From: a virus
Taxonomy: Duplodnaviria > Heunggongvirae > Uroviricota > Caudoviricetes
DNA: 33,145 nucleotides
Reading direction: 5' to 3' (one strand)
IMG/VR virus record: IMGVR_UViG_2534681702_000003
Location: 1 to 33,145 of that record
Below are positions 2,760 to 33,145 of this stretch, piece after piece. Each line of letters begins with the position of its first letter. Within the stretch, counting starts at the first letter, position 1. Below the pieces are notes generated by a model that was given only the letters and a program-made list of their open reading frames with translations, was not told where the DNA came from and ran no database searches. The translations under genes were made by a program, and so were the position numbers.

Positions 2760-3889
2760 TTTGCATTCGGTTTTTCGTTGTCCGGAATTGCCGTTTCCAC
2801 TGCATCAGTTTCTGGTACTGGCGACGAGAGAGTATCAGTTGCGCTCTGATTTGTTCCTTCATCTTCAAACACGCCCTTTGTAGTCAGGTATTCAGTAATG
2901 TATTTGTTCAGTGCCACAGAGTCTTTGTGAATGTCGATCGGACGTTCACGAACAAGGCCAAAAATAGTCTGGCGGTCGTAGCGAAGGGCATCAGGCTGTT
3001 TGCGCATTGATGCCGAGATACGCTTCCAGTCTTCGCGGTCGTTGTCGATAACTTCATTTTTTGCCCAGCGATGGATGCTGCCGCCAATGTTTCCGGCATC
3101 CACATCACCAGGCCAGAGAGCGTAGGCCAGTTCATCATCCAGTGTTTTCCATGTCTGCTTGTATTCGCGACGAATGACTGCAGTGACAGGGTGGATTTTT
3201 TCTGCTGAGTTTTCAGTGTACTGTTGATTGGCTCTGGCGCGGGCGAGATCAACAACAGACGTGTATTTCCCGGTTTCCTTGCGTTCACCTTCGCGACGTT
3301 TTTTCCAGATGCGCATCTCTGCCTGAATTTCGGGCCATTTGGCACCAGGCTTACATTTATGCTTAACCCACCCGATGGCATGCAGCTTAAGCTCCGGATA
3401 CATGGCGTTAACTTCTGGCATTTTCATCAACGCTTCAACGATATGTCCGTCGAATGTTGCCATGTCTTCCTGCAACAATTCCTGCGCGCTAATCACCATA
3501 TCAACGGTGATGTTTTCACATGTGTCGAACTTAACCATGACAGCGTTCTGTACTTCAGGGGCCAGCTTGTCAAAAGTGACGTTCATCGGATCTGATTCAG
3601 TCTCAACCGGGACAAAGGAAGCAGACTCCTCATCCCAGCGGTTTTCCTGCATATATTCAGCATCCCAGGAATCGAGGGCAGGGCGGGGTATACCGGGCTT
3701 ATCCTCGCAGATAATAAATTTATAAGCGCAGTCCTGAGCAGCCGGATAATGTTCCAGGAATTGCCAGTGAAATTTTGCTCGAGCACGGCGTTCGTCGCCA
3801 GCTTCAATGGCTGTGGCTACAGCCACAGCGCCTTCTTCCCTTGTTGCCAGTTCGTCAGGAATAGCGGCGCAAATAAAGACTTTACTCAT
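2738..3889 (-). CDS. Hypothetical early-left operon protein (383 aa)
   Basis: Long ORF, GAGG RBS upstream of ATG at 3889, overlaps start of exonuclease gene; no family recognised. Confidence 0.6.
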   Translation of the reverse strand: MSKVFICAAIPDELATREEGAVAVATAIEAGDERRARAKFHWQFLEHYPAAQDCAYKFIICEDKPGIPRPALDSWDAEYMQENRWDEESASFVPVETESDPMNVTFDKLAPEVQNAVMVKFDTCENITVDMVISAQELLQEDMATFDGHIVEALMKMPEVNAMYPELKLHAIGWVKHKCKPGAKWPEIQAEMRIWKKRREGERKETGKYTSVVDLARARANQQYTENSAEKIHPVTAVIRREYKQTWKTLDDELAYALWPGDVDAGNIGGSIHRWAKNEVIDNDREDWKRISASMRKQPDALRYDRQTIFGLVRERPIDIHKDSVALNKYITEYLTTKGVFEDEGTNQSATDTLSSPVPETDAVETAIPDNEKPNAKWKSNHL

Positions 3890-4585: not shown

Positions 4586-4920
4586 ATTGATAACAGAGGG
4601 CGTTGCAGCGGGGTTGTCACTTAAGCGTATGGTCAACCTGGCAACCCGGTGTCTCAATGGGGGAGGAATAACCCCGCCATACTTACCGCCGCGCCATTTC
4701 GCGGAGTGCCACAACCGGAAGCGCACGGTCGAATTAAATTTAACGACACCGTACAGTGAGACGAACTTCGCCGTGCGCTTTCGCGTTATGCCCTGGCTTT
4801 TCAGGGATATATCCTTTCAGTAAACTGTCAGTACCGGATTCTTATCCGTGTCCGGCGCACGACCACACGTGGCAGCGTGTTGGTCTCCATTTTTAACCCA
4901 GAACCTCAATGGAGGATAAA

Positions 4921-5130
4921 ATGCCAAACAAAAAAAGAAATCCGCTTATTGAAAAACAGATTGAATGCCTGGTAAATCAACTCAGGCAATCAGGGTTATT
5001 AAAAACTCATTCAGAGTTGAGGCTCACAGAATCAGCATTCGACGATAAATTAAATAATGTCCTTTATAATGGCATTATTGATTTTAATCGTTCAGTTGGT
5101 CGCCTCGGCCCTGCTGGTGTTTCCTTATAA
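4921..5130 (+). CDS. Hypothetical small protein (69 aa), opposite orientation to early-left operon
   Basis: ATG at 4921 preceded by GGAGGAT; stop abuts stop of convergent 212-aa gene; no homology recognised. Confidence 0.35.
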   Translation: MPNKKRNPLIEKQIECLVNQLRQSGLLKTHSELRLTESAFDDKLNNVLYNGIIDFNRSVGRLGPAGVSL

Positions 5131-5769
5131 TTACCAGTCAATCCAGAGCGGACCGTGTTCAGCGTAAATATAACTGTACACATCCAGATTATATTTGTGG
5201 TCTGTTAAGAACAGGCCGCAAATACATGCCGAAGCTTCCAGGGCAGCGGCTCTGTTACTGAATAACCATGTGGCAACATTCCAGCGTTTTTCTGCATCCC
5301 AGTCTTTCTCAAGGCCTGATACCATGAAGAAACCGTTAGTGTTGCCATCAAATAATTCTGTTTCCAGATTTTTAAGCAATGCCTGATGGACTCTTGCCAG
5401 GTATTCCGCCGGAATTTCGCCACGAATTCTGATGAGATTGTCATAAACAAACATGTTCCCCGCATATGGCGATTTTTCTTTCTTGTTTTTTAAACCAGCA
5501 TCATGAGCAAACTGATCAATTTCTTCTTCCGTTGGTTTCGTATTGATGTTTTGCGCTGTCGTTTCTGCAATTTTATTTGCCACACTATCTGAGTCGTGTT
5601 TATTTACAGACGCACAGAAATACAATCCGGTAAACGCATCGCGCACATTACGAGCCATATTATCAGTGTCTTTTTTCGTTACCGATTCCAATGCAAGTTC
5701 GTTCAGACGATGACGAAGTGTGTGTGCTGCAATCTCCTGGATTGAAGTAGGTAAATCTTTAAATTCCAT
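5131..5769 (-). CDS. Hypothetical protein (212 aa)
   Basis: ORF with GAGG RBS before second ATG (MEFKDL...); start overlaps stop of upstream DUF1391-like gene. Confidence 0.6.
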   Translation of the reverse strand: MEFKDLPTSIQEIAAHTLRHRLNELALESVTKKDTDNMARNVRDAFTGLYFCASVNKHDSDSVANKIAETTAQNINTKPTEEEIDQFAHDAGLKNKKEKSPYAGNMFVYDNLIRIRGEIPAEYLARVHQALLKNLETELFDGNTNGFFMVSGLEKDWDAEKRWNVATWLFSNRAAALEASACICGLFLTDHKYNLDVYSYIYAEHGPLWIDW

Positions 5770-5780
5770 CGTCAACCTCA

Positions 5781-5933
5781 TCAGTCAGAGTTTCTTGCTA
5801 ACCAGCGATGCGCGCCAGCTTCGGTTTTAAACGTTTTGCTTTTGGTATACGTCATCGCGGTGAACGTGCCGTCCTGGTTGGGAAACACGCCGCACACCAG
5901 AGATTCGTTGTTGCCAAGATCGATAGTATCCAT
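5781..5933 (-). CDS. YdfA/YdaF-like small protein (DUF1391-like)
   Basis: 50 aa MDTIDLGNNESLVCGVFPNQDGTFTAMTYTKSKTFKTE... resembles recalled YdaF/YdfA; GAGG RBS. Confidence 0.55.
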   Translation of the reverse strand: MDTIDLGNNESLVCGVFPNQDGTFTAMTYTKSKTFKTEAGAHRWLARNSD

Positions 5934-6014
5934 GTTGACCTCATTTCCCCTTAACGCCGGGGTAGCGGAACAAAAACCTGCTGCATAGTTATTAAAGTTG
6001 AACCCTGCCGTCAT

Positions 6015-6225
6015 GTTCTTACGCCTCGGGCTGGCTACTTAACCCCTGACCACTGCCGGGTAACTCGAAGTATTGCCCTGCATTCTGTGGGGTGGAGTGA
6101 GGGAATGAATGAAGTTTAGAAAAATGAACTTTACAGGTCAATGTTTTTTTATCAAAACATTTTAAGCAGGCAGCTGTTAAGCCATCACCACGATGGCATA
6201 CAGTTAATCAAATAGATGAGGTTGG
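6015..6225. promoter_or_regulatory. Putative leftward early promoter/operator region (pL/OL-like)
   Basis: Non-coding gap downstream of cI; contains GTTTTTTTATCAAAAC (6143-6158) sharing the GTTTT-N6-AAAAC pattern of the cI-cro intergenic sites. Confidence 0.4.
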
Positions 6226-26562: not shown

Positions 26563-29532
26563 ATGGCAGTAAAGATTTCAGGTGTACTGAAAGACGGCAC
26601 AGGAAAACCAGTACAGAACTGCACAATCCAGCTGAAAGCAAAACGTAACAGCACCACGGTGGTGGTGAACACGCTGGCCTCAGAAAATCCGGATGAAGCC
26701 GGGCGTTACAGCATGGACGTTGAGTACGGTCAGTACAGCGTTATTCTGTTGGTGGACGGATTCCCGCCGTCACATGCCGGGACCATCACCGTGTATGAAG
26801 ATTCCCGACCCGGTACGCTGAATGATTTTCTCGGTGCCATGACGGAGGATGATGCCCGTCCGGAGGCACTGCGCCGTTTTGAACTGATGGTGGAAGAGGT
26901 GGCGCGTAACGCGTCCGCAGTGGCACAGAACACGGCAGCCGCGAAGAAGTCAGCCAGTGATGCCAGCACATCAGCCCGTGAGGCGGCAACCCATGCGACT
27001 GATGCTGCAGGCTCAGCACGCGCAGCCAGCACGTCAGCCGGACAGGCCGCGTCGTCGGCTCAGTCAGCGTCTTCCAGCGCAGGAACGGCATCGACAAAGG
27101 CCAGTGAAGCAGCGAAAAGTGCTGCTGCTGCAGAGTCATCAAAAAGCGCGGCAGCTACCAGCGCCAGTGCCGCGAAAACGTCAGAAACGAATGCCGCAGC
27201 ATCACAAAAATCGGCAGCCACTTCTGCATCCACAGCGACCACGAAGGCGTCAGAAGCTGCCACCTCGGCACGGGGGGCGGCGGCCTCAAAAGAGGCAGCG
27301 AAATCATCAGAAACGAATGCATCATCAAGTGCCAGTAGTGCAGCTTCCTCGGCAACGGCGGCAGGAAATTCCGCGAAGGCGGCAAAGACGTCTGAGACAA
27401 ACGCTAAGTCTTCTGAAACGGCAGCAGCACAGAGTGCCTCAGCTGCGGCAGGTTCAAAAACAGCGGCTGCATCGTCGGCCAGTGCCGCGTCAACAAGTGC
27501 CGGGCAGGCCTCAGCCAGTGCCACCGCCGCCGGAAAATCGGCAGAAAGCGCCGCATCATCCGCTTCAACAGCCACAACGAAGGCTGGCGAAGCCACTAAG
27601 CAAGCCACTGCAGCAGCGAGGTCTGCTTCTGCAGCAAAAACCTCTGAAACAAATGCAAAGACTTCAGCAGACAATGCTGCTTCCTCTAAGGCGGCAGCCG
27701 CATCGTCCGCTGGTTCAGCGGCGTCATCGGCATCATCTGCGTCTGCTTCAAAAGATGAGGCGACCAGACAAGCGTCAGCAGCGAAAGGTAGTGCCACGAC
27801 AGCAACAACGAAAGCATCAGAGGCGGCAGGCAGTGCGACGGCTGCATCTCAGAGCAAAGTTGCTGCTGAATCCGCGGCAACGCGTGCCGAAACAGCAGCA
27901 AAACGGGCAGAGGATATTGCTGATGCCGTATCTCTGGAAGATGCGAGCACGACGAAAAAAGGTGTGGTTCAGCTCAGCAGTGCGACCAACAGCACTTCCG
28001 AGTCACTGGCGGCAACACCAAAGGCAGTAAAGGCAGCATATGACCTTGCTAACGCAAAATATACCGCTCAGGATGCAACGACGGCACGAAAAGGGATAGT
28101 TCAGCTCAGTAGCGCCACTAACAGCCCGTCTGAAACGCTGGCTGCGACACCAAAAGCGGTTAAGGCGGTAATGGATGAAACGAACAAGAAAGCGCCTTTA
28201 AACAGTCCTGCGCTGACCGGAACGCCAACAACGCCAACTGCGCCAAAAGGGACTAATAATACTCAGATCGCAAGCACGGCTTATGTGATGGCCGCGATTG
28301 CCGCACTTGTAGACTCGTCGCCTGACGCACTGAATACGCTGAACGAGCTGGCGGCGGCGCTGGGAAACGACCCGAATTTTGCGACCACCATGACTAACGC
28401 GCTTGCGGGTAAGCAACCGAAAGATGCCACCCTGACGGCGCTGGCCGGGCTTGCTACTGCGGCAGACAGGTTTCCGTATTTTACGGGGAATGATGTCGCC
28501 AGCCTGGCAACCCTGACAAAAGTCGGGCGGGATATTCTTGCGAAATCGACCGTTGCCGCTGTTATCGAATACCTCGGTTTACAGGAAACGGTAAGTCAGG
28601 CTTCTGGCGCATTACAGAAAAACCAGAACGGCGCAGATATTCCAGGAAAAGATACCTTCACCAAAAATATTGGTGCCTGCCGCGCATATAGCTCATGGCT
28701 GAATATTGGTGGCGATAGTCAGGTCTGGACAACCGCGCAATTTATTTCGTGGCTGGAGAGTCAGGGGGCATTTAACCATCCTTACTGGATGTGCAAAGGC
28801 TCATGGGCTTATGCAAATAATAAGGTCATTACAGATACAGGTTGCGGAAATATTTGTCTTGCAGGTGCTGTGGTGGAAGTTATTGGCACTCGCGGCGCAA
28901 TGACCATACGCGTTACTACGCCGAGCACGTCCAGCGGTGGCGGAATTACTAACGCTCAATTCACTTATATTAATCATGGTGATGCTTACGCTCCTGGCTG
29001 GCGACGAGACTACAACACGAAAAACCAGCAGCCTGCATTTGCTTTAGGGCAAACAGGACGCAGGGTCGCAAATGATAAAGCTGTTGGCTGGAACTGGAAT
29101 AGCGGTGTTTATGATGCAGATATCAGTGGTGCATCGACATTAATCCTCCACTTCAATATGAATGCGGGGAGTTGCCCTGCTGTACAGTTCCGCGTGAATT
29201 ACAGGAACGGCGGTATTTTTTATCGTTCAGCGCGTGATGGTTATGGCTTTGAAGCTAACTGGTCAGAGTTTTACACCACAACACGCAAACCCTCTGCGGG
29301 GGATGTTGGTGCATATACGCAGGCAGAATGTAACTCAAGGTTTATTACAGGTATTCGCCTTGGCGGTCTGTCATCTGTTCAGACATGGAAAGGCCCCGGC
29401 TGGTCTGACAGGTCAGGTTATGTCGTTACGGGTTCAGTTAACGGAAACCGTGATGAATTAATTGATACAACTCAGGCAAGGCCAATTCAGTATTGCATTA
29501 ATGGGACGTGGTATAACGCGGGGAGTATTTAA
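26563..29532 (+). CDS. stf: Side tail fibre protein Stf (constant part plus current variable C-terminal part)
   Basis: N-terminus MAVKISGVLKDGTGKPVQNCTIQLKA... as recalled for lambda Stf; long Ala/Ser/Thr-rich repeat region; C-terminus ends ...RPIQYCINGTWYNAGSI. Confidence 0.9.
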   Translation: MAVKISGVLKDGTGKPVQNCTIQLKAKRNSTTVVVNTLASENPDEAGRYSMDVEYGQYSVILLVDGFPPSHAGTITVYEDSRPGTLNDFLGAMTEDDARPEALRRFELMVEEVARNASAVAQNTAAAKKSASDASTSAREAATHATDAAGSARAASTSAGQAASSAQSASSSAGTASTKASEAAKSAAAAESSKSAAATSASAAKTSETNAAASQKSAATSASTATTKASEAATSARGAAASKEAAKSSETNASSSASSAASSATAAGNSAKAAKTSETNAKSSETAAAQSASAAAGSKTAAASSASAASTSAGQASASATAAGKSAESAASSASTATTKAGEATKQATAAARSASAAKTSETNAKTSADNAASSKAAAASSAGSAASSASSASASKDEATRQASAAKGSATTATTKASEAAGSATAASQSKVAAESAATRAETAAKRAEDIADAVSLEDASTTKKGVVQLSSATNSTSESLAATPKAVKAAYDLANAKYTAQDATTARKGIVQLSSATNSPSETLAATPKAVKAVMDETNKKAPLNSPALTGTPTTPTAPKGTNNTQIASTAYVMAAIAALVDSSPDALNTLNELAAALGNDPNFATTMTNALAGKQPKDATLTALAGLATAADRFPYFTGNDVASLATLTKVGRDILAKSTVAAVIEYLGLQETVSQASGALQKNQNGADIPGKDTFTKNIGACRAYSSWLNIGGDSQVWTTAQFISWLESQGAFNHPYWMCKGSWAYANNKVITDTGCGNICLAGAVVEVIGTRGAMTIRVTTPSTSSGGGITNAQFTYINHGDAYAPGWRRDYNTKNQQPAFALGQTGRRVANDKAVGWNWNSGVYDADISGASTLILHFNMNAGSCPAVQFRVNYRNGGIFYRSARDGYGFEANWSEFYTTTRKPSAGDVGAYTQAECNSRFITGIRLGGLSSVQTWKGPGWSDRSGYVVTGSVNGNRDELIDTTQARPIQYCINGTWYNAGSI
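28562..28593. repeat. Left inverted repeat / recombination site of invertible segment (gix/cix-like)
   Basis: TTATCGAATACCTCGGTTTACAGGAAACGGTA; reverse complement of 31687-31718 differs at 2 positions; lies inside stf. Confidence 0.7.
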
Positions 29533-29534
29533 CG

Positions 29535-30068
29535 ATGATGCACTTAAAAAACATTACTGCTGGCAACCCTAAAACAAAAGAGCAATACCAGCTAACAAAG
29601 CAATTTAACATCAAATGGCTTTATTCAGATGATGGAAAAAACTGGTATGAGGAACAAAAGAATTTCCAGCCAGACACTTTGAAAATGGTCTATGACCATA
29701 ACGGCGTTATTATTTGTATTGAAAAGGATGTTTCAGCAATTAATCCAGAGGGTGCAAGCGTCGTTGAATTACCTGATATTACAGCAAATCGCCGGGCTGA
29801 TATTTCGGGGAAATGGATGTTCAAAGATGGCGTAGTGATAAAGCGAACTTATACCGAGGAAGAGCAGAGGCAACAAGCGGAAAATGAAAAGCAAAGCCTG
29901 TTGCAACTTGTCAGGGATAAAACCCAGCTATGGGACTCACAGCTACGGCTGGGCATCATTTCCGACGAGAATAAACAAAAATTAACCGAGTGGATGCTCT
30001 ATGCGCAGAAAGTCGAATCTACAGACACTTCCGGCCTGCCAGTAACGTTTCCCGAACAACCAGAATGA
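29535..30068 (+). CDS. tfa: Tail fibre assembly protein Tfa
   Basis: 177 aa; conserved Tfa N-terminus [22 protein letters not shown]... Confidence 0.85.
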   Translation: MMHLKNITAGNPKTKEQYQLTKQFNIKWLYSDDGKNWYEEQKNFQPDTLKMVYDHNGVIICIEKDVSAINPEGASVVELPDITANRRADISGKWMFKDGVVIKRTYTEEEQRQQAENEKQSLLQLVRDKTQLWDSQLRLGIISDENKQKLTEWMLYAQKVESTDTSGLPVTFPEQPE

Positions 30069-30096: not shown

Positions 30097-30624
30097 TTAC
30101 TCTGGTTTTTGTGGCCATTCAGGATTTGCCGTATCCACACGGCTGACCAGAACACTGTAGCGTTCCCATGCTTCCAGTCGTGTGCGTTCCTCGTCTGTTG
30201 CCATATTCAGCCTGACAGCGCGTTCCAGCGGTTGGATGACTGATTCAGCTTCGGAAAGCAATGCGGCCTTTTGTGATTCGGCCTGTTGTTGTTGCTCGTC
30301 TGCCGTATAAATCCGTTTAACCACAGCTCCGTCCCTAAACATCCACTTACCGGAATCATCAGCGCGGCGGTTGGCTGTAATATCTGGAACCTCAACGACG
30401 CTATAACCTTCAGGGTTAAGCGTGGAGGCATCTTTGGTGATGGCGACAATAATATTATTTGCATCGTAAACAATCTTTATTGTGTCTGGCTGAAAGTTTT
30501 TCACTTCCTCATACCAGTTTTTACCGTCTTCTGTATATAACCAGATAACATCAAAATTCTTTGTTAGCTGATATTGTTCTTTTGTTTTTGGATTTCCAGA
30601 CTTAATATTTTTTAAATGCTGCAT
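30097..30624 (-). CDS. Alternative tail fibre assembly protein (inverted orientation)
   Basis: 175 aa; [22 protein letters not shown]... paralogous to the plus-strand tfa. Confidence 0.8.
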
Positions 30625-30627
30625 AAA

Positions 30628-31686
30628 TTACACCTGTACGACGTTATACCATGTGCCATTGATGTATTTTTGTATTGGCCTGAAGATGGCTTCATCATCG
30701 CCATCTACTTCACCAATGATTCTTAATCCGGTAATTGCGTGTCCGGCTTTTTCATAACGACCACCACGCGCCATCAATTGAACAACACGCGTACCCAGGC
30801 GAACATCTTTCACATAGCGGGAATCAAAATTCCCCCAGTTGCTGGGCTGTATCTGACCGTTAACAGCAAATGTTACTGAGTTATCTGTATTTCGCTGACT
30901 ATAGAAATGCCAGCCTGAATCATCACCAAGCTCTGCAACAGTTGGTCTTGATGAAGTGCCCCATAAATTAAACCCTACGTTCTTCGTGGAGTTGTTGGAG
31001 CTGGATAGCGAGAATTTTTTACTATCACCTGCCTGAATGTTTTTAAAAGCAATAGCCACTCCATTCTGAAAGCGGAATACTCGCTGACTATTAGCGTAAA
31101 CATCAAGAATACCATCACCATTCTGTTTAAATCCGGTATCATTATCACCAAGAACAATTGAGTTCCCACCCAACGCGTTATTCGTGCCAAGTGCCAGCCC
31201 GCCATCAATCCTGGCACCATTACCAACAGACACAACTCCTGTTCTTAAGTTGATGTTGAATGGCCTTAATGGCCCAATATCTCCATTTTCACCCTCATTT
31301 TCTCGTGTAGGGATGATATGCAGGTGTTCTTCAGAACGGCGAAAAATAGCACCAAAGGATGAATTAAAAATCCTCAGTGCATTGACTGTCGATATTTTTA
31401 CTTCACTGCCGAAAAGGGCTTTAACAAGAACATACAAAGCACCCCATTTAAGATTCATCAGGTCTTTTGTTGTGGTGCCATGGCGGCTTCTCCATTTGAA
31501 ATATTCATTGCCGTTGTCGCCTGTTTCAAACCACATGTATGAATCAGTATCGCTGTCGGCATCATTTTTAAATCCAATCTTCGCCCAGTCAGTATTTCTA
31601 ATCCAGGCAAGGATTGAGTCGTTTGCAAAAGTAAGCCCACCGGACAAGGTATCGCCATTCTTTTGCACGGCGTTCCTGGCCCTGTT
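30628..31686 (-). CDS. Alternative Stf variable C-terminal segment (no own start; expressed only after inversion)
   Basis: Minus-strand frame opens inside right inverted repeat as ...LGLQETVNRARNAVQKNGDTLSGG..., sharing LGLQET with the stf junction; ends ...RPIQKYINGTWYNVVQV. Confidence 0.7.
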   Translation of the reverse strand, partial: NRARNAVQKNGDTLSGGLTFANDSILAWIRNTDWAKIGFKNDADSDTDSYMWFETGDNGNEYFKWRSRHGTTTKDLMNLKWGALYVLVKALFGSEVKISTVNALRIFNSSFGAIFRRSEEHLHIIPTRENEGENGDIGPLRPFNINLRTGVVSVGNGARIDGGLALGTNNALGGNSIVLGDNDTGFKQNGDGILDVYANSQRVFRFQNGVAIAFKNIQAGDSKKFSLSSSNNSTKNVGFNLWGTSSRPTVAELGDDSGWHFYSQRNTDNSVTFAVNGQIQPSNWGNFDSRYVKDVRLGTRVVQLMARGGRYEKAGHAITGLRIIGEVDGDDEAIFRPIQKYINGTWYNVVQV

Positions 31687-31718
31687 TACCGTTTCCTGTA
31701 AACCGAGGTTTTAGATAA
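31687..31718. repeat. Right inverted repeat / recombination site of invertible segment
   Basis: Reverse complement TTATCTAAAACCTCGGTTTACAGGAAACGGTA. Confidence 0.7.
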
Positions 31719-31772
31719 TGGCCGTTTCTGGCCTGCATGGCATGATTTGTGCTTTTGGACGGGAGATTCAGC

Positions 31773-32006
31773 GTGCTGATTGGCTATGTAAGGGTATCAA
31801 CAAATGACCAGAATACAGACCTGCAACGAAACGCTCTTGTTTGTGCAGGATGTGAACAAATATTTGAAGATAAATTAAGCGGAACAAGGACAGGCCGACC
31901 TGGATTAAAACGTGCTTTAAAGCGCCTTCAAAAAGGTGACGCACTAGTTGTCTGGAAACTGGACTGACTGGGTCACTGTATGCGGCATCTTGTCGTGCTG
32001 GTGGTG
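31773..32006 (+). pseudogene. pin: Decayed DNA invertase gene (Pin/Gin/Hin serine recombinase), premature stop and 3' truncation
   Basis: VLIGYVRVSTNDQNTDLQRNALVCAGCEQIFEDKLSGTRTGRPGLKRALKRLQKGDALVVWKLD then TGA at 31965-31967; pin-like codons continue to about 32006 then switch to tfa 3' sequence. Confidence 0.75.
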
Positions 32007-32099
32007 GAAGCCTGGAAAAAGTATCGGGTGTTGCTGAACCGTGTTGATACATCAACTGCACCTGATATTGAGTGGCCTACGAACCCTGTCAGGGAGTAA
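32007..32099 (+). pseudogene. tfa 3' end fragment fused to truncated pin
   Basis: Encodes [30 protein letters not shown]; about 73 bp near-identical to 33056-33128. Confidence 0.6.
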
Positions 32100-32113
32100 T
32101 CATTGGGATTATG

Positions 32114-32160
32114 CCGCAGCACGTCTTAAGCAAGAACGTGCTGCGGTTGGATGCTATTTT
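32114..32160. terminator. Hairpin, likely bidirectional terminator
   Basis: 10-bp stem CCGCAGCACG / CGTGCTGCGG with 13-nt loop, followed by TGGATGCTATTTTTT; lies between convergent genes. Confidence 0.5.
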
Positions 32161-32822
32161 TTCCCTGAAGCGGAAAACATTACTACAGTACCTTGAACCT
32201 TGGTTTTAACATTCTCGAAATGCTCTGAGAGTATATGTGTTAAGCCTTCTTCGGAATCTTTTGTGTTTGAAAAGATGCCTTTCTGATTGTAAATGCGCAT
32301 CAGTTTTTGACCGAAGCTATTGTGCACAACTCCATCGCCAAGAATTGTGGCTCCGTATAGAGTTCCATCGTCAGTTAAGGCCTGCGCAGCATTGCGTATT
32401 ACACAGCTTTTTGTAGATATATTTCCAGGCAGGCAGTGAAGAAGGTAAAACATGGAAATGGAATCAAATTGACCATGTAACGCCGCGGGATAAGGTTCAA
32501 AAACATCATGGCTAATTTTATGTTTAATTTTTGATTCCCCAGCCCTTGTAGATGCCGCGTTCAGGCTAGCTTCGTTCAAATCCATTAAAGATATCAGACT
32601 ACTCTCAGGTACGTGAGTAAGGTAAAACCCAGTTCCAACACCAATATCCAGATGGTTGTTACCTAAATGTTCCAGAAAGTGTGGAAGAAGGTGTTCCTTT
32701 GTAGGACATCCCCATGCAAGACGATTTGATACTCCCAAAACCCACCAGTCATAAAGCTTTAGGGTAAGTGGTGTGTAAATTTTAGCCCCATCATGTGTGT
32801 TTTTTTTCATTAATTTCACCAT
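32154..32822 (-). CDS. Class I SAM-dependent methyltransferase (222 aa), substrate unknown
   Basis: Motif I LDIGVGTGFY, acidic residue in LMDLNE, motif FDSISMFYLLHCLP; low-GC codon usage. Confidence 0.7.
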   Translation of the reverse strand: MVKLMKKNTHDGAKIYTPLTLKLYDWWVLGVSNRLAWGCPTKEHLLPHFLEHLGNNHLDIGVGTGFYLTHVPESSLISLMDLNEASLNAASTRAGESKIKHKISHDVFEPYPAALHGQFDSISMFYLLHCLPGNISTKSCVIRNAAQALTDDGTLYGATILGDGVVHNSFGQKLMRIYNQKGIFSNTKDSEEGLTHILSEHFENVKTKVQGTVVMFSASGKK

Positions 32823-32878
32823 GTTATAGTTTTGTTTATGAATTAAATCAATTATGGCGATGAATTACAAGGGGTTAA

Positions 32879-33145
32879 ATGCTGCCGCAGCATAGCGATA
32901 TTGAAATAGCCTGGTATGCTTCGATACAGCAGGAGCCGAATGGCTGGAAGACCGTCACCACACAGTTCTACATCCAGGAATTCAGTGAGCATATTGCGCC
33001 ACTTCAGGATGCTGTAGATCTGGAGATCGCAACGGAGGAAGAAAACTCGTTGCTGGAAGCCTGGAAGAAGTATCGGGTGTTGCTGAACCGTGTTGATACA
33101 TCAACCGCACCTGATATTGAGTGGCCGACTTCACCTGCAGAGTAA
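32879..33145 (+). pseudogene. Tail fibre assembly (tfa) 3' fragment
   Basis: 88-aa ORF ending ...[53 protein letters not shown], matching recalled lambda Tfa C-terminus; too short for a complete tfa. Confidence 0.6.

Follow-up and report, generated by a model that had tools for sequence, protein, structure and literature searches.

A truncated gin/pinE/tfa mosaic invertase gene beside a tail-fibre segment that has inverted since the truncation in a defective lambdoid prophage

The stretch of DNA analysed here, referred to below as the window, comprises 33,145 nucleotides (nt), corresponding to positions 1 to 33,145 of the IMG/VR virus record IMGVR_UViG_2534681702_000003 (Caudoviricetes). Judged from its sequence, the region 31773-32099 of this window is the dead, three-part chimeric remnant (gin-type, pinE-type and tfa) of a serine DNA-invertase gene, adjoining an invertible tail-fibre segment. 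The parts of the switch that act in cis are kept, and it is very probable that the segment still inverts by means of an intact invertase of the Gin/Cin/Pin family encoded elsewhere. Inversion despite truncation, with action in trans proposed to account for it, was already published in 2014 for the same allele, which is an ordinary, known pseudogene. What is new here is the mosaic anatomy of the remnant (a minor detail), the boundaries of the cassette graft, the retained enhancer homologue and the frequency of the allele in the population.

The remnant is composed of the following parts, all on the + strand:
31773-31964: gin-type invertase codons 1 to 64, with a GTG start and the catalytic Ser9 kept, matching Pfam Resolvase and the Gin structure
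31965-31967: in-frame TGA at codon 65, standing for the first Arg of the D-R-L-G-R-S motif
31968-32001: pinE-type invertase piece, which with the TGA makes up a 45-nt block running through 32009 (14 residues)
32002-32099: 3' tail of the resident lambdoid tfa gene (last ~30 codons and stop), fused in frame

The frame 31773-32102 opens, in translation, with VLIGYVRVSTNDQ. Codons 1-64 match Pfam Resolvase (PF00239, E=1.1e-18) over profile positions 2-73 of 145 only, and the solved Gin structures 4M6F and 3UJ3 (E about 1e-42, Gin residues 2-64 aligned); only D41G and T57A separate them from Gin. The nucleophilic serine, corresponding to Ser9, which has the catalytic role in Gin (PMC3575834), is present in its Y-V-R-V-S-T motif, and a Shine-Dalgarno-like GGGAG is kept ahead of the GTG start. 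A preliminary description of this DNA, made from the letters alone, had reported a decayed pin-like gene with a TGA (31965-31967) after codon 64 in place of an expected Arg, an intact catalytic-serine N-terminus, and loss of the remaining recombination domain and of the helix-turn-helix (HTH). These points are borne out by the translation and the Gin alignment, by the Ser9 motif together with the Pfam Resolvase match, and by a Resolvase match that ends at profile position 73. Within the D-R-L-G-R-S motif, the TGA stands at the first Arg, while His replaces the second and Cys replaces the Ser. The invertase-like stretch past the stop holds 14 codons (31968-32009) and not the about 13 given previously, while the switch into the last 30 tfa codons stands as described. 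The final 27-30 residues, which make up the tfa-derived tail, correspond to positions 104-130 of 131 of Pfam Caudo_TAP (E=6.6e-13); this domain is incomplete at 32002-32099, which holds codons 166-194 of a 194-codon tfa and so amounts to a 3' fragment rather than a gene. The remnant encodes neither an E helix nor an HTH, and the Pfam scan gave no HTH match. Lacking these two elements and the two catalytic arginines of the motif, the predicted product cannot recombine DNA. Of the features of the Fis-dependent invertase subfamily (Gin/Cin/Pin/Hin), the start of the catalytic N-terminus and an adjoining pair of inverted 26-bp crossover sites are found, and the complete catalytic domain is not. 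A further open reading frame (ORF) of 45 codons (32072-32209) overlaps the tfa tail and the 3' end of the downstream methyltransferase gene; it is listed as hypothetical protein WP_001309429.1 in every genome inspected and is probably a propagated spurious call.

The distribution of the truncated allele was determined with a 220-nt junction probe, for which 80% coverage is reachable only by spanning all three parts of the mosaic. Coverage of at least 80% was obtained in 536 of 5,426 complete Escherichia coli genomes (about a tenth), and the allele was found at at least four chromosomal sites. Nine copies from independent assemblies, representing four sites, were inspected, and strain EC958 was compared too:
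potB/potC site: the window, E54, 504838, TW10573 and H10407
attLambda (ybhB/bioA) site: E54 and MSI001
prfC site: Survcare253
ompW/trpA site: M24, plus EC958

All nine carry the TGA at codon 65, and the 45-nt piece is essentially unchanged throughout. The truncation is common to copies that have diverged by up to 3-5% at the four chromosomal sites. Copies in sequence type 131 (ST131) carry W61* and a second nonsense codon, and scattered non-conservative changes are found in others (D16G, C27Y, G37E, T38I, D41G). On these comparisons the lesion is old and widespread and not specific to the prophage of the window, and the truncated invertase gene is a drifting pseudogene of single origin, carried between lambdoid prophages.

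A sequencing or assembly artefact at the TGA, or its decoding by readthrough or recoding into a working enzyme, has a practically negligible probability. In E. coli, termination at a TGA is relatively leaky when the next base is C, which would favour readthrough, but the product would only be a 108-amino-acid (aa) chimera with R68H, S69C and a tfa tail, having neither E helix nor HTH. Nor is the stop a misread CGA in a full-length pin, an outcome for which the preliminary description had allowed: its presence in all nine independently assembled copies shows that it is not a sequencing error. That the short ORF might be a normal gene in relatives, also raised there, agrees superficially with RefSeq, where the 64-codon ORF is often called as an ordinary 'recombinase family protein' coding sequence (CDS), but not with the ST131 copies, which bear nonsense codons and are flagged as pseudogenes. 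It is, indeed, extremely unlikely that this ORF encodes a functional small protein such as a regulator or a dominant-negative invertase partner. Many RefSeq genomes annotate it with no pseudogene flag, its GTG start, Shine-Dalgarno-like GGGAG and Ser9 are kept, and it occurs in about 10% of genomes; against this, the flagged ST131 copies have W61*, the substitutions listed above occur elsewhere, and the ORF breaks off halfway through the catalytic domain (profile position 73 of 145), short of the E helix that mediates contacts between invertase subunits (PMC3575834). Furthermore, the adjoining untranslated 45-nt piece is equally conserved, which points to youth or recombination rather than to selection on a protein.

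The invertible cassette beside the remnant is organized as follows:
26557-29532 (+): side tail fibre gene stf as now joined, 991 aa (constant N-terminal 679 aa and variable Sv), from the ORF list; annotated in strain E8 as prophage tail fiber N-terminal domain protein
28562-28594: left inverted-repeat arm, inside stf, with the 26-bp gix-type crossover site 28562-28587, TTATCGAATACC-TC-GGTTTACAGGAA
28595-31685: interior of the invertible segment, 3,091 bp, of Mu G / P1 C type, with Sv-U on one strand and U'-Sv' on the other
29535-30068 (+): U-type tail fibre assembly gene for the currently expressed fibre (Pfam Caudo_TAP, E=2e-36; WP_000972143.1 in E8)
30097-30624 (-): U'-type alternative tail fibre assembly gene (Pfam Caudo_TAP, E=1e-37; WP_001393491.1)
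30628-31707 (-): alternative fibre C-terminus Sv', an ORF open to the right repeat (Pfam Gp34_trimer; a partial CDS at 5029-6108 of the E8 locus in the Prokaryotic Genome Annotation Pipeline, PGAP)
31686-31718: right inverted-repeat arm, with the 26-bp crossover site 31693-31718 and its central dinucleotide at 31705-31706

The two arms measure 33 nt each and are 94% complementary. The left crossover site is identical to the published 5' site of prophage Phi4 of EC958 (26/26) and the right site agrees with its own Phi4 counterpart at 24 of 26 positions; the segment is 90-96% identical to the G or C segments of P88, P7, Mu, D108, P1 and SfMu. As in a cassette of the Mu G / P1 C type, the repeats lie inside a fibre gene that has a constant N-terminus and two alternative C-termini. 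Inversion in silico produces a fibre of 1,031 aa sharing its first 679 aa with the present one and followed directly by the other assembly gene; the stf frame is thus open in both orientations (991 and 1,031 aa), each time ahead of a Caudo_TAP gene. The functional cognate invertase gene that would adjoin such a segment is missing, the neighbouring gene being the 64-codon stump. By its sequence, the fibre switch is therefore structurally complete except for the enzyme.

This segment is not locked, and its inversion occurred after the stump was formed. Strain E8, identical to the window over the last 7.5 kb (the left two-thirds differ), has the orientation of the window, whereas E54, 504838 and TW10573 have the opposite one. 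In E54, the protein of the stump is identical to that of the window and the two assembly genes stand in opposite order; compared with the window and E8, the 3,091-bp interior is 100% identical yet inverted, and the flanks are 100% identical as well, including 7,460 bp on the right. The repeat arms differ by two mismatches in their outer half-sites, and since these markers stay with the flanks in both E8 and E54, the exchange is confined to 24 bp, ACCTCGGTTTACAGGAAACGGTAA, containing the central TC of the gix-type site. An orientation census with junction-specific probes of 1,065 nt, in which the same segment allele adjoins the same stump, gave 10 genomes oriented as the window and 16 opposite. 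A second, independent case is provided by EC958 and M24 (both ST131), which differ by an exact inversion between flanks that are 100% identical. Moreover, PacBio reads from one culture of EC958 assembled into both orientations of the Phi4 segment (Forde et al. 2014, PMC4134206). Since the truncation is old (several loci, diverged copies) and the inversion lies between strains identical at the locus, the inversion is the later event. The suggestion in the preliminary description that the segment is probably locked is contradicted by the comparison of E8 with E54, by the census and by the single EC958 culture.

The same observations make it very unlikely that loss of its own invertase has fixed the segment in place, with orientation differences that predate the truncation. 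The enzyme is clearly dead, and 504838 and LR882997 gave no chromosomal invertase 3' half by megablast. Some copies, namely E54 at attLambda and Survcare253 at prfC, have no left crossover site, and these two are genuinely locked. However, an allele truncated in copies 3-5% diverged at four sites implies an inversion far younger than the truncation, no difference was found over 3,091 and 7,460 bp between oppositely oriented strains, and the ST131 pair and the EC958 culture repeat the result.

An inversion achieved with no invertase, either by RecA-dependent recombination of the 33-bp inverted repeats or by a segment swap with the cassette of another prophage, is distinctly unlikely. Twenty-four base pairs of identity lie at or below the minimal substrate for efficient RecA-dependent recombination. 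Homologous crossover within the 24-bp identical exchange interval is allowed, though such an interval is too short or marginal for efficient RecA recombination. Related cassettes are present in many prophages of these genomes, and strains such as 504838 have no detectable chromosomal invertase 3' half; a swap, however, would not leave an interior 100% identical and flank markers unchanged, and the repeats exactly match canonical gix-type crossover sites. In EC958, approximately half of the reads support each orientation for the prophage whose invertase is intact, and Phi4 too yielded alternative contigs, which argues for a high rate of the site-specific kind.

The proviso of the preliminary description, that another invertase might act in trans, fits a segment that flips although its own enzyme is dead, and trans action is what we infer from this. 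The search for other serine invertases recommended there gave none in the 33-kb window (tblastn with Gin, PinE and PinQ). On the chromosome, composite probes joining the methyltransferase gene, as an anchor, to invertase 3' halves absent from the stump were used in megablast searches, with the anchor alone as control; among the matches listed, each chromosome of the E8 group, whichever orientation of the segment it carries, gave:
anchor with gin/P2-type 3' halves: three places
anchor with cin/pinE-type 3' halves: three places
anchor alone: one place

Equal counts for the two composite probes could be suspected to be an artefact of the anchor; this was rejected, the anchor alone giving one place. 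The probes thus place invertase 3' halves at two or more additional chromosomal loci in strains near-identical to the window here. The e14 prophage with pinE at icd was considered as the source of the enzyme in E8 and discarded, e14 being absent there. In EC958 and M24, an annotated and fully covered recombinase gene is present in a Xuanwu-type prophage, and E8 is not among the matches listed for a query with a Xuanwu-type invertase locus. Trans action has a precedent in PinQ of prophage Qin, which inverts the P segment of e14 (PMC12529663), and prophage invertons flip constantly in culture (PMC4272514). An intact Gin/Cin/Pin-family invertase of another prophage or phage would catalyse the inversion seen here.

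The 5' end of the stump also contains a candidate cis element:
31791-31862: stretch homologous to the Cin enhancer (cin nt 19-90), candidate Fis-bound enhancer, by homology to the enhancer feature of the P1 RefSeq record

In the curated P1 RefSeq record, the Cin recombinational enhancer is cin nt 19-90, inside the 5' coding region, and the Mu enhancer is reported to lie within gin (Kahmann et al. 1985). The stretch 31791-31862 is 100% identical to Mu gin. It is accompanied by two 15-mers of the form G-N13-C, 49 bp apart, whose midpoints lie 95.5 and 144.5 bp away from the centre of the crossover site, a pattern that is suggestive only; the first candidate Fis-type 15-mer, at 95.5 bp, is near the geometry of Hin, whose native spacing from enhancer to site is roughly 100 bp. 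Matches to a regular expression for the Fis consensus showed a spacing of 37 bp, unlike known enhancers, and were set aside. On this homology, the stump probably still supplies a cis enhancer for wild-type enzymes of the Gin family. The segment would hence continue to invert because the crossover sites, both Sv-U sets and the enhancer-homologous stretch survive in cis.

Several points weigh against inversion by an intact enzyme encoded elsewhere. Differences in orientation between assemblies show past inversion and indicate neither its rate nor the enzyme responsible, and the strain of the window is known from sequence alone. The markers in the repeat arms are compatible with exchange at the central dinucleotide or with a rare RecA-dependent crossover within the 24 identical bp. 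The two further loci of the E8 group were seen as invertase 3' halves and may not be full length. In 504838 (NZ_CP025856.1) and LR882997 (NZ_LR882997.1), a chromosome-only megablast, which leaves plasmids, phages and PinQ/PinR-type enzymes uncovered, found no gin/P2-, cin- or pinE-type 3' half. Finally, the enhancer role rests on homology, and nt 1-100 of the remnant are no more conserved than the presumably functionless 45-nt piece. The strains 504838 and LR882997 are both oriented opposite to the window, which may reflect a copy on a plasmid or phage, a divergent enzyme of PinQ/PinR type or an inherited orientation.

It is also possible, though unlikely, that the stump is maintained as the Fis-enhancer DNA of an orphan switch run by foreign invertases, with the flipping serving the host cell. 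If so, flipping of stf in a dead prophage might block a phage receptor, as reported for StfE2 of e14 with PinQ. The conservation of nt 1-100 was examined as a sign of selection on the enhancer and rejected as such, the functionless 45-nt piece being equally conserved and intact gin-type genes showing the same pattern. In the fibre gene itself, a deletion at 3505-3528 of the E54 locus fuses a tape-measure fragment to the C-terminal half of the fibre, and a 1-nt indel at 4632-4967 of the 504838 locus splits the fibre ORF. These sister strains damage the fibre gene differently, and this gene is therefore not consistently maintained. Such inconsistent upkeep argues against strong selection on the fibre gene at the level of the host.

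The three parts of the remnant have different closest relatives. Over codons 1-64, nucleotide identity is 186/192 (96.9%) to Mu gin, 183/192 to the invertases of P2-like and Xuanwu-type prophages, 135/192 (70%) to e14 pinE and 131/192 (68%) to P1 cin; nt 1-100 are those of Mu gin with no difference. The 45-nt block 31965-32009, in turn, matches K-12 pinE at 37 of 45 positions, including a run of 25/25, as against 30/45 for cin, 25/45 for P2-type genes and 24/45 for gin. The name 'pin' given to the gene previously thus suits the middle piece and not the gin-type 5' part. A PinR/PinQ-like origin of the peptide past the TGA was rejected, with only 13/45 nt shared, in favour of the pinE type. Sites specific to gin end at 31958 and those specific to pinE begin at 31970, so that the switch of parent type occupies an 11-nt interval into which the TGA falls. 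Given this position, the TGA is more than a single base change in a local gene that was intact elsewhere. The 14 nt 31964-31977 contain seven substitutions that match none of gin, P2-type genes, pinE and (mostly) cin; this cluster sits on the codons of the catalytic D-R-L-G-R-S and is followed by 25 nt identical to pinE. It may be a scar of the recombination junction, a trace of a third parent or something else.

At the other end, the sequence from 32002 is 98.2% identical to the 3' end of tfa (codon 165/166-194) in O26 strain RM10386 (locus position 5903 onward). In that strain, a full-length tfa of 194 codons stops at the corresponding position, with the same methyltransferase gene immediately downstream; the tfa tail is therefore taken to be the leftover 3' end of a resident tfa. 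Homology to the ordinary stf-tfa-methyltransferase arrangement of RM10386 is absent between 28166 and 32002. The constant part of stf before this limit (26938-28166) is rich in Ala, Ser and Thr and contains repeat families, with six copies of a 33-nt unit; two 95-nt copies lie at 27940-28166, the second of which marks the end of homology to ordinary lambdoid stf. The join between the pinE-type piece and tfa shows at most 2-3 nt of microhomology and is in frame by chance. On the favoured reading, a lambdoid prophage received in its stf-tfa region a fibre cassette of the Mu G / P1 C type, at whose right edge the remnant lies; this cassette, bearing an already incomplete invertase gene, replaced the C-terminal part of the fibre and most of tfa, and the pinE-type block and the end of the resident tfa were joined by an illegitimate, in-frame junction.

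The closest known system is prophage Phi4 of EC958, in which a 'severely truncated' invertase lacking the HTH (EC958_1582) was described beside an invertible fibre segment of 3,106 bp, and trans-mediated inversion was proposed (Forde et al. 2014, PMC4134206). The Phi4 stump shares 323/330 nt with the present one, together with the TGA at codon 65, the pinE-type piece and the tfa junction; the identity is 98.0% over 31698-33126, with the methyltransferase gene and then a second tfa fragment in the same order. However, Phi4 lies at the ompW/trpA site instead of potB/potC, has another set of Sv/U alleles (70-80% identity) and carries two extra nonsense codons, and the gin/pinE/tfa mosaic, the enhancer homologue and the population frequency are not part of that report. 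Mu, with Gin and its G segment, has the same type of crossover site, the same Sv-U / U'-Sv' layout and 94% identity, but Mu has a full-length gin (193 aa) whose product inverts the Mu segment itself, and this segment belongs to a Mu-type S gene and not to a lambdoid stf. The e14 element, with Pin and the P segment, is likewise a defective prophage whose fibre segment keeps flipping and is acted on by the invertase of another prophage (PinQ), whereas it keeps a functional pinE and its 1.8-kb P segment has different repeats. P1 and P7, with Cin and the C segment, have a segment 90-96% identical and an enhancer that lies within the 5' coding sequence of cin; in P1, however, the invertase gene is intact, and cin is only 68% identical to the 5' part of the stump.

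The prophage of the window is lambdoid and defective: after terminase, portal and a truncated S49 protease, only the C-terminal 435 aa of the tail-tip protein J are left, and the window contains no capsid, tail-tube or tape-measure genes. Flipping therefore has no obvious consequence for its own virions. The region 23731-25831 contains an internal deletion junction at about 24791, where homology to fuller relatives such as 504838 breaks off within the S49 head protease gene and what comes next belongs to the C-terminal part of J; this exact junction is in no genome of the collection. The deletions in E8 are others, and the counterpart of 17319-22148 is missing there. In E8 (chromosome positions 1229795-1263050), the potABCD operon is split by the prophage, which is inserted between potC and potB: 31 kb separate potA and potB from potC and potD, and the annotation gives both flanking genes at full length. 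Two tRNA genes, at 16528-16603 and 16701-16777, were predicted by ARAGORN as tRNA-Met(CAT) and tRNA-Arg(TCT), the first being a tRNA-Ile in the RefSeq annotation of E8, presumably with a lysidine-modified CAT anticodon. To the right of the remnant are found:
32154-32822 (-): class I S-adenosylmethionine-dependent methyltransferase gene, a cargo gene and not part of the switch (Pfam Methyltransf_12/23/25)
32879-33145 (+): second tfa C-terminal fragment, at the right end of the prophage (Caudo_TAP positions 75-131; pseudogene 'missing N-terminus' in PGAP)

Of the 5,426 E. coli genomes, 3,834 contain the methyltransferase stretch, which usually comes immediately after a full-length tfa. In the window, the methyltransferase gene is bracketed by direct repeats of the tfa 3' tail that are 95% identical (32002-32080 and 33051-33129), and has the appearance of cargo brought in through recombination between the ends of tfa genes.

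In summary, the mosaic anatomy of the remnant would record the grafting of a fibre switch of Mu/P2 type into lambdoid prophages, followed by its spread to several integration sites. The 64-codon stump is widely listed in RefSeq as a normal 'recombinase family protein', a point of relevance to annotation. Should fibre flipping in dead prophages have a role for the host, as claimed for e14 and with no such role shown here, this common allele would be a convenient test case. A dead invertase gene beside an invertible segment does not mean a frozen segment, and both orientations should be expected by annotators and in comparative studies; Gin-family enzymes of other prophages can, on the reading favoured here, service a segment whose own invertase is dead.

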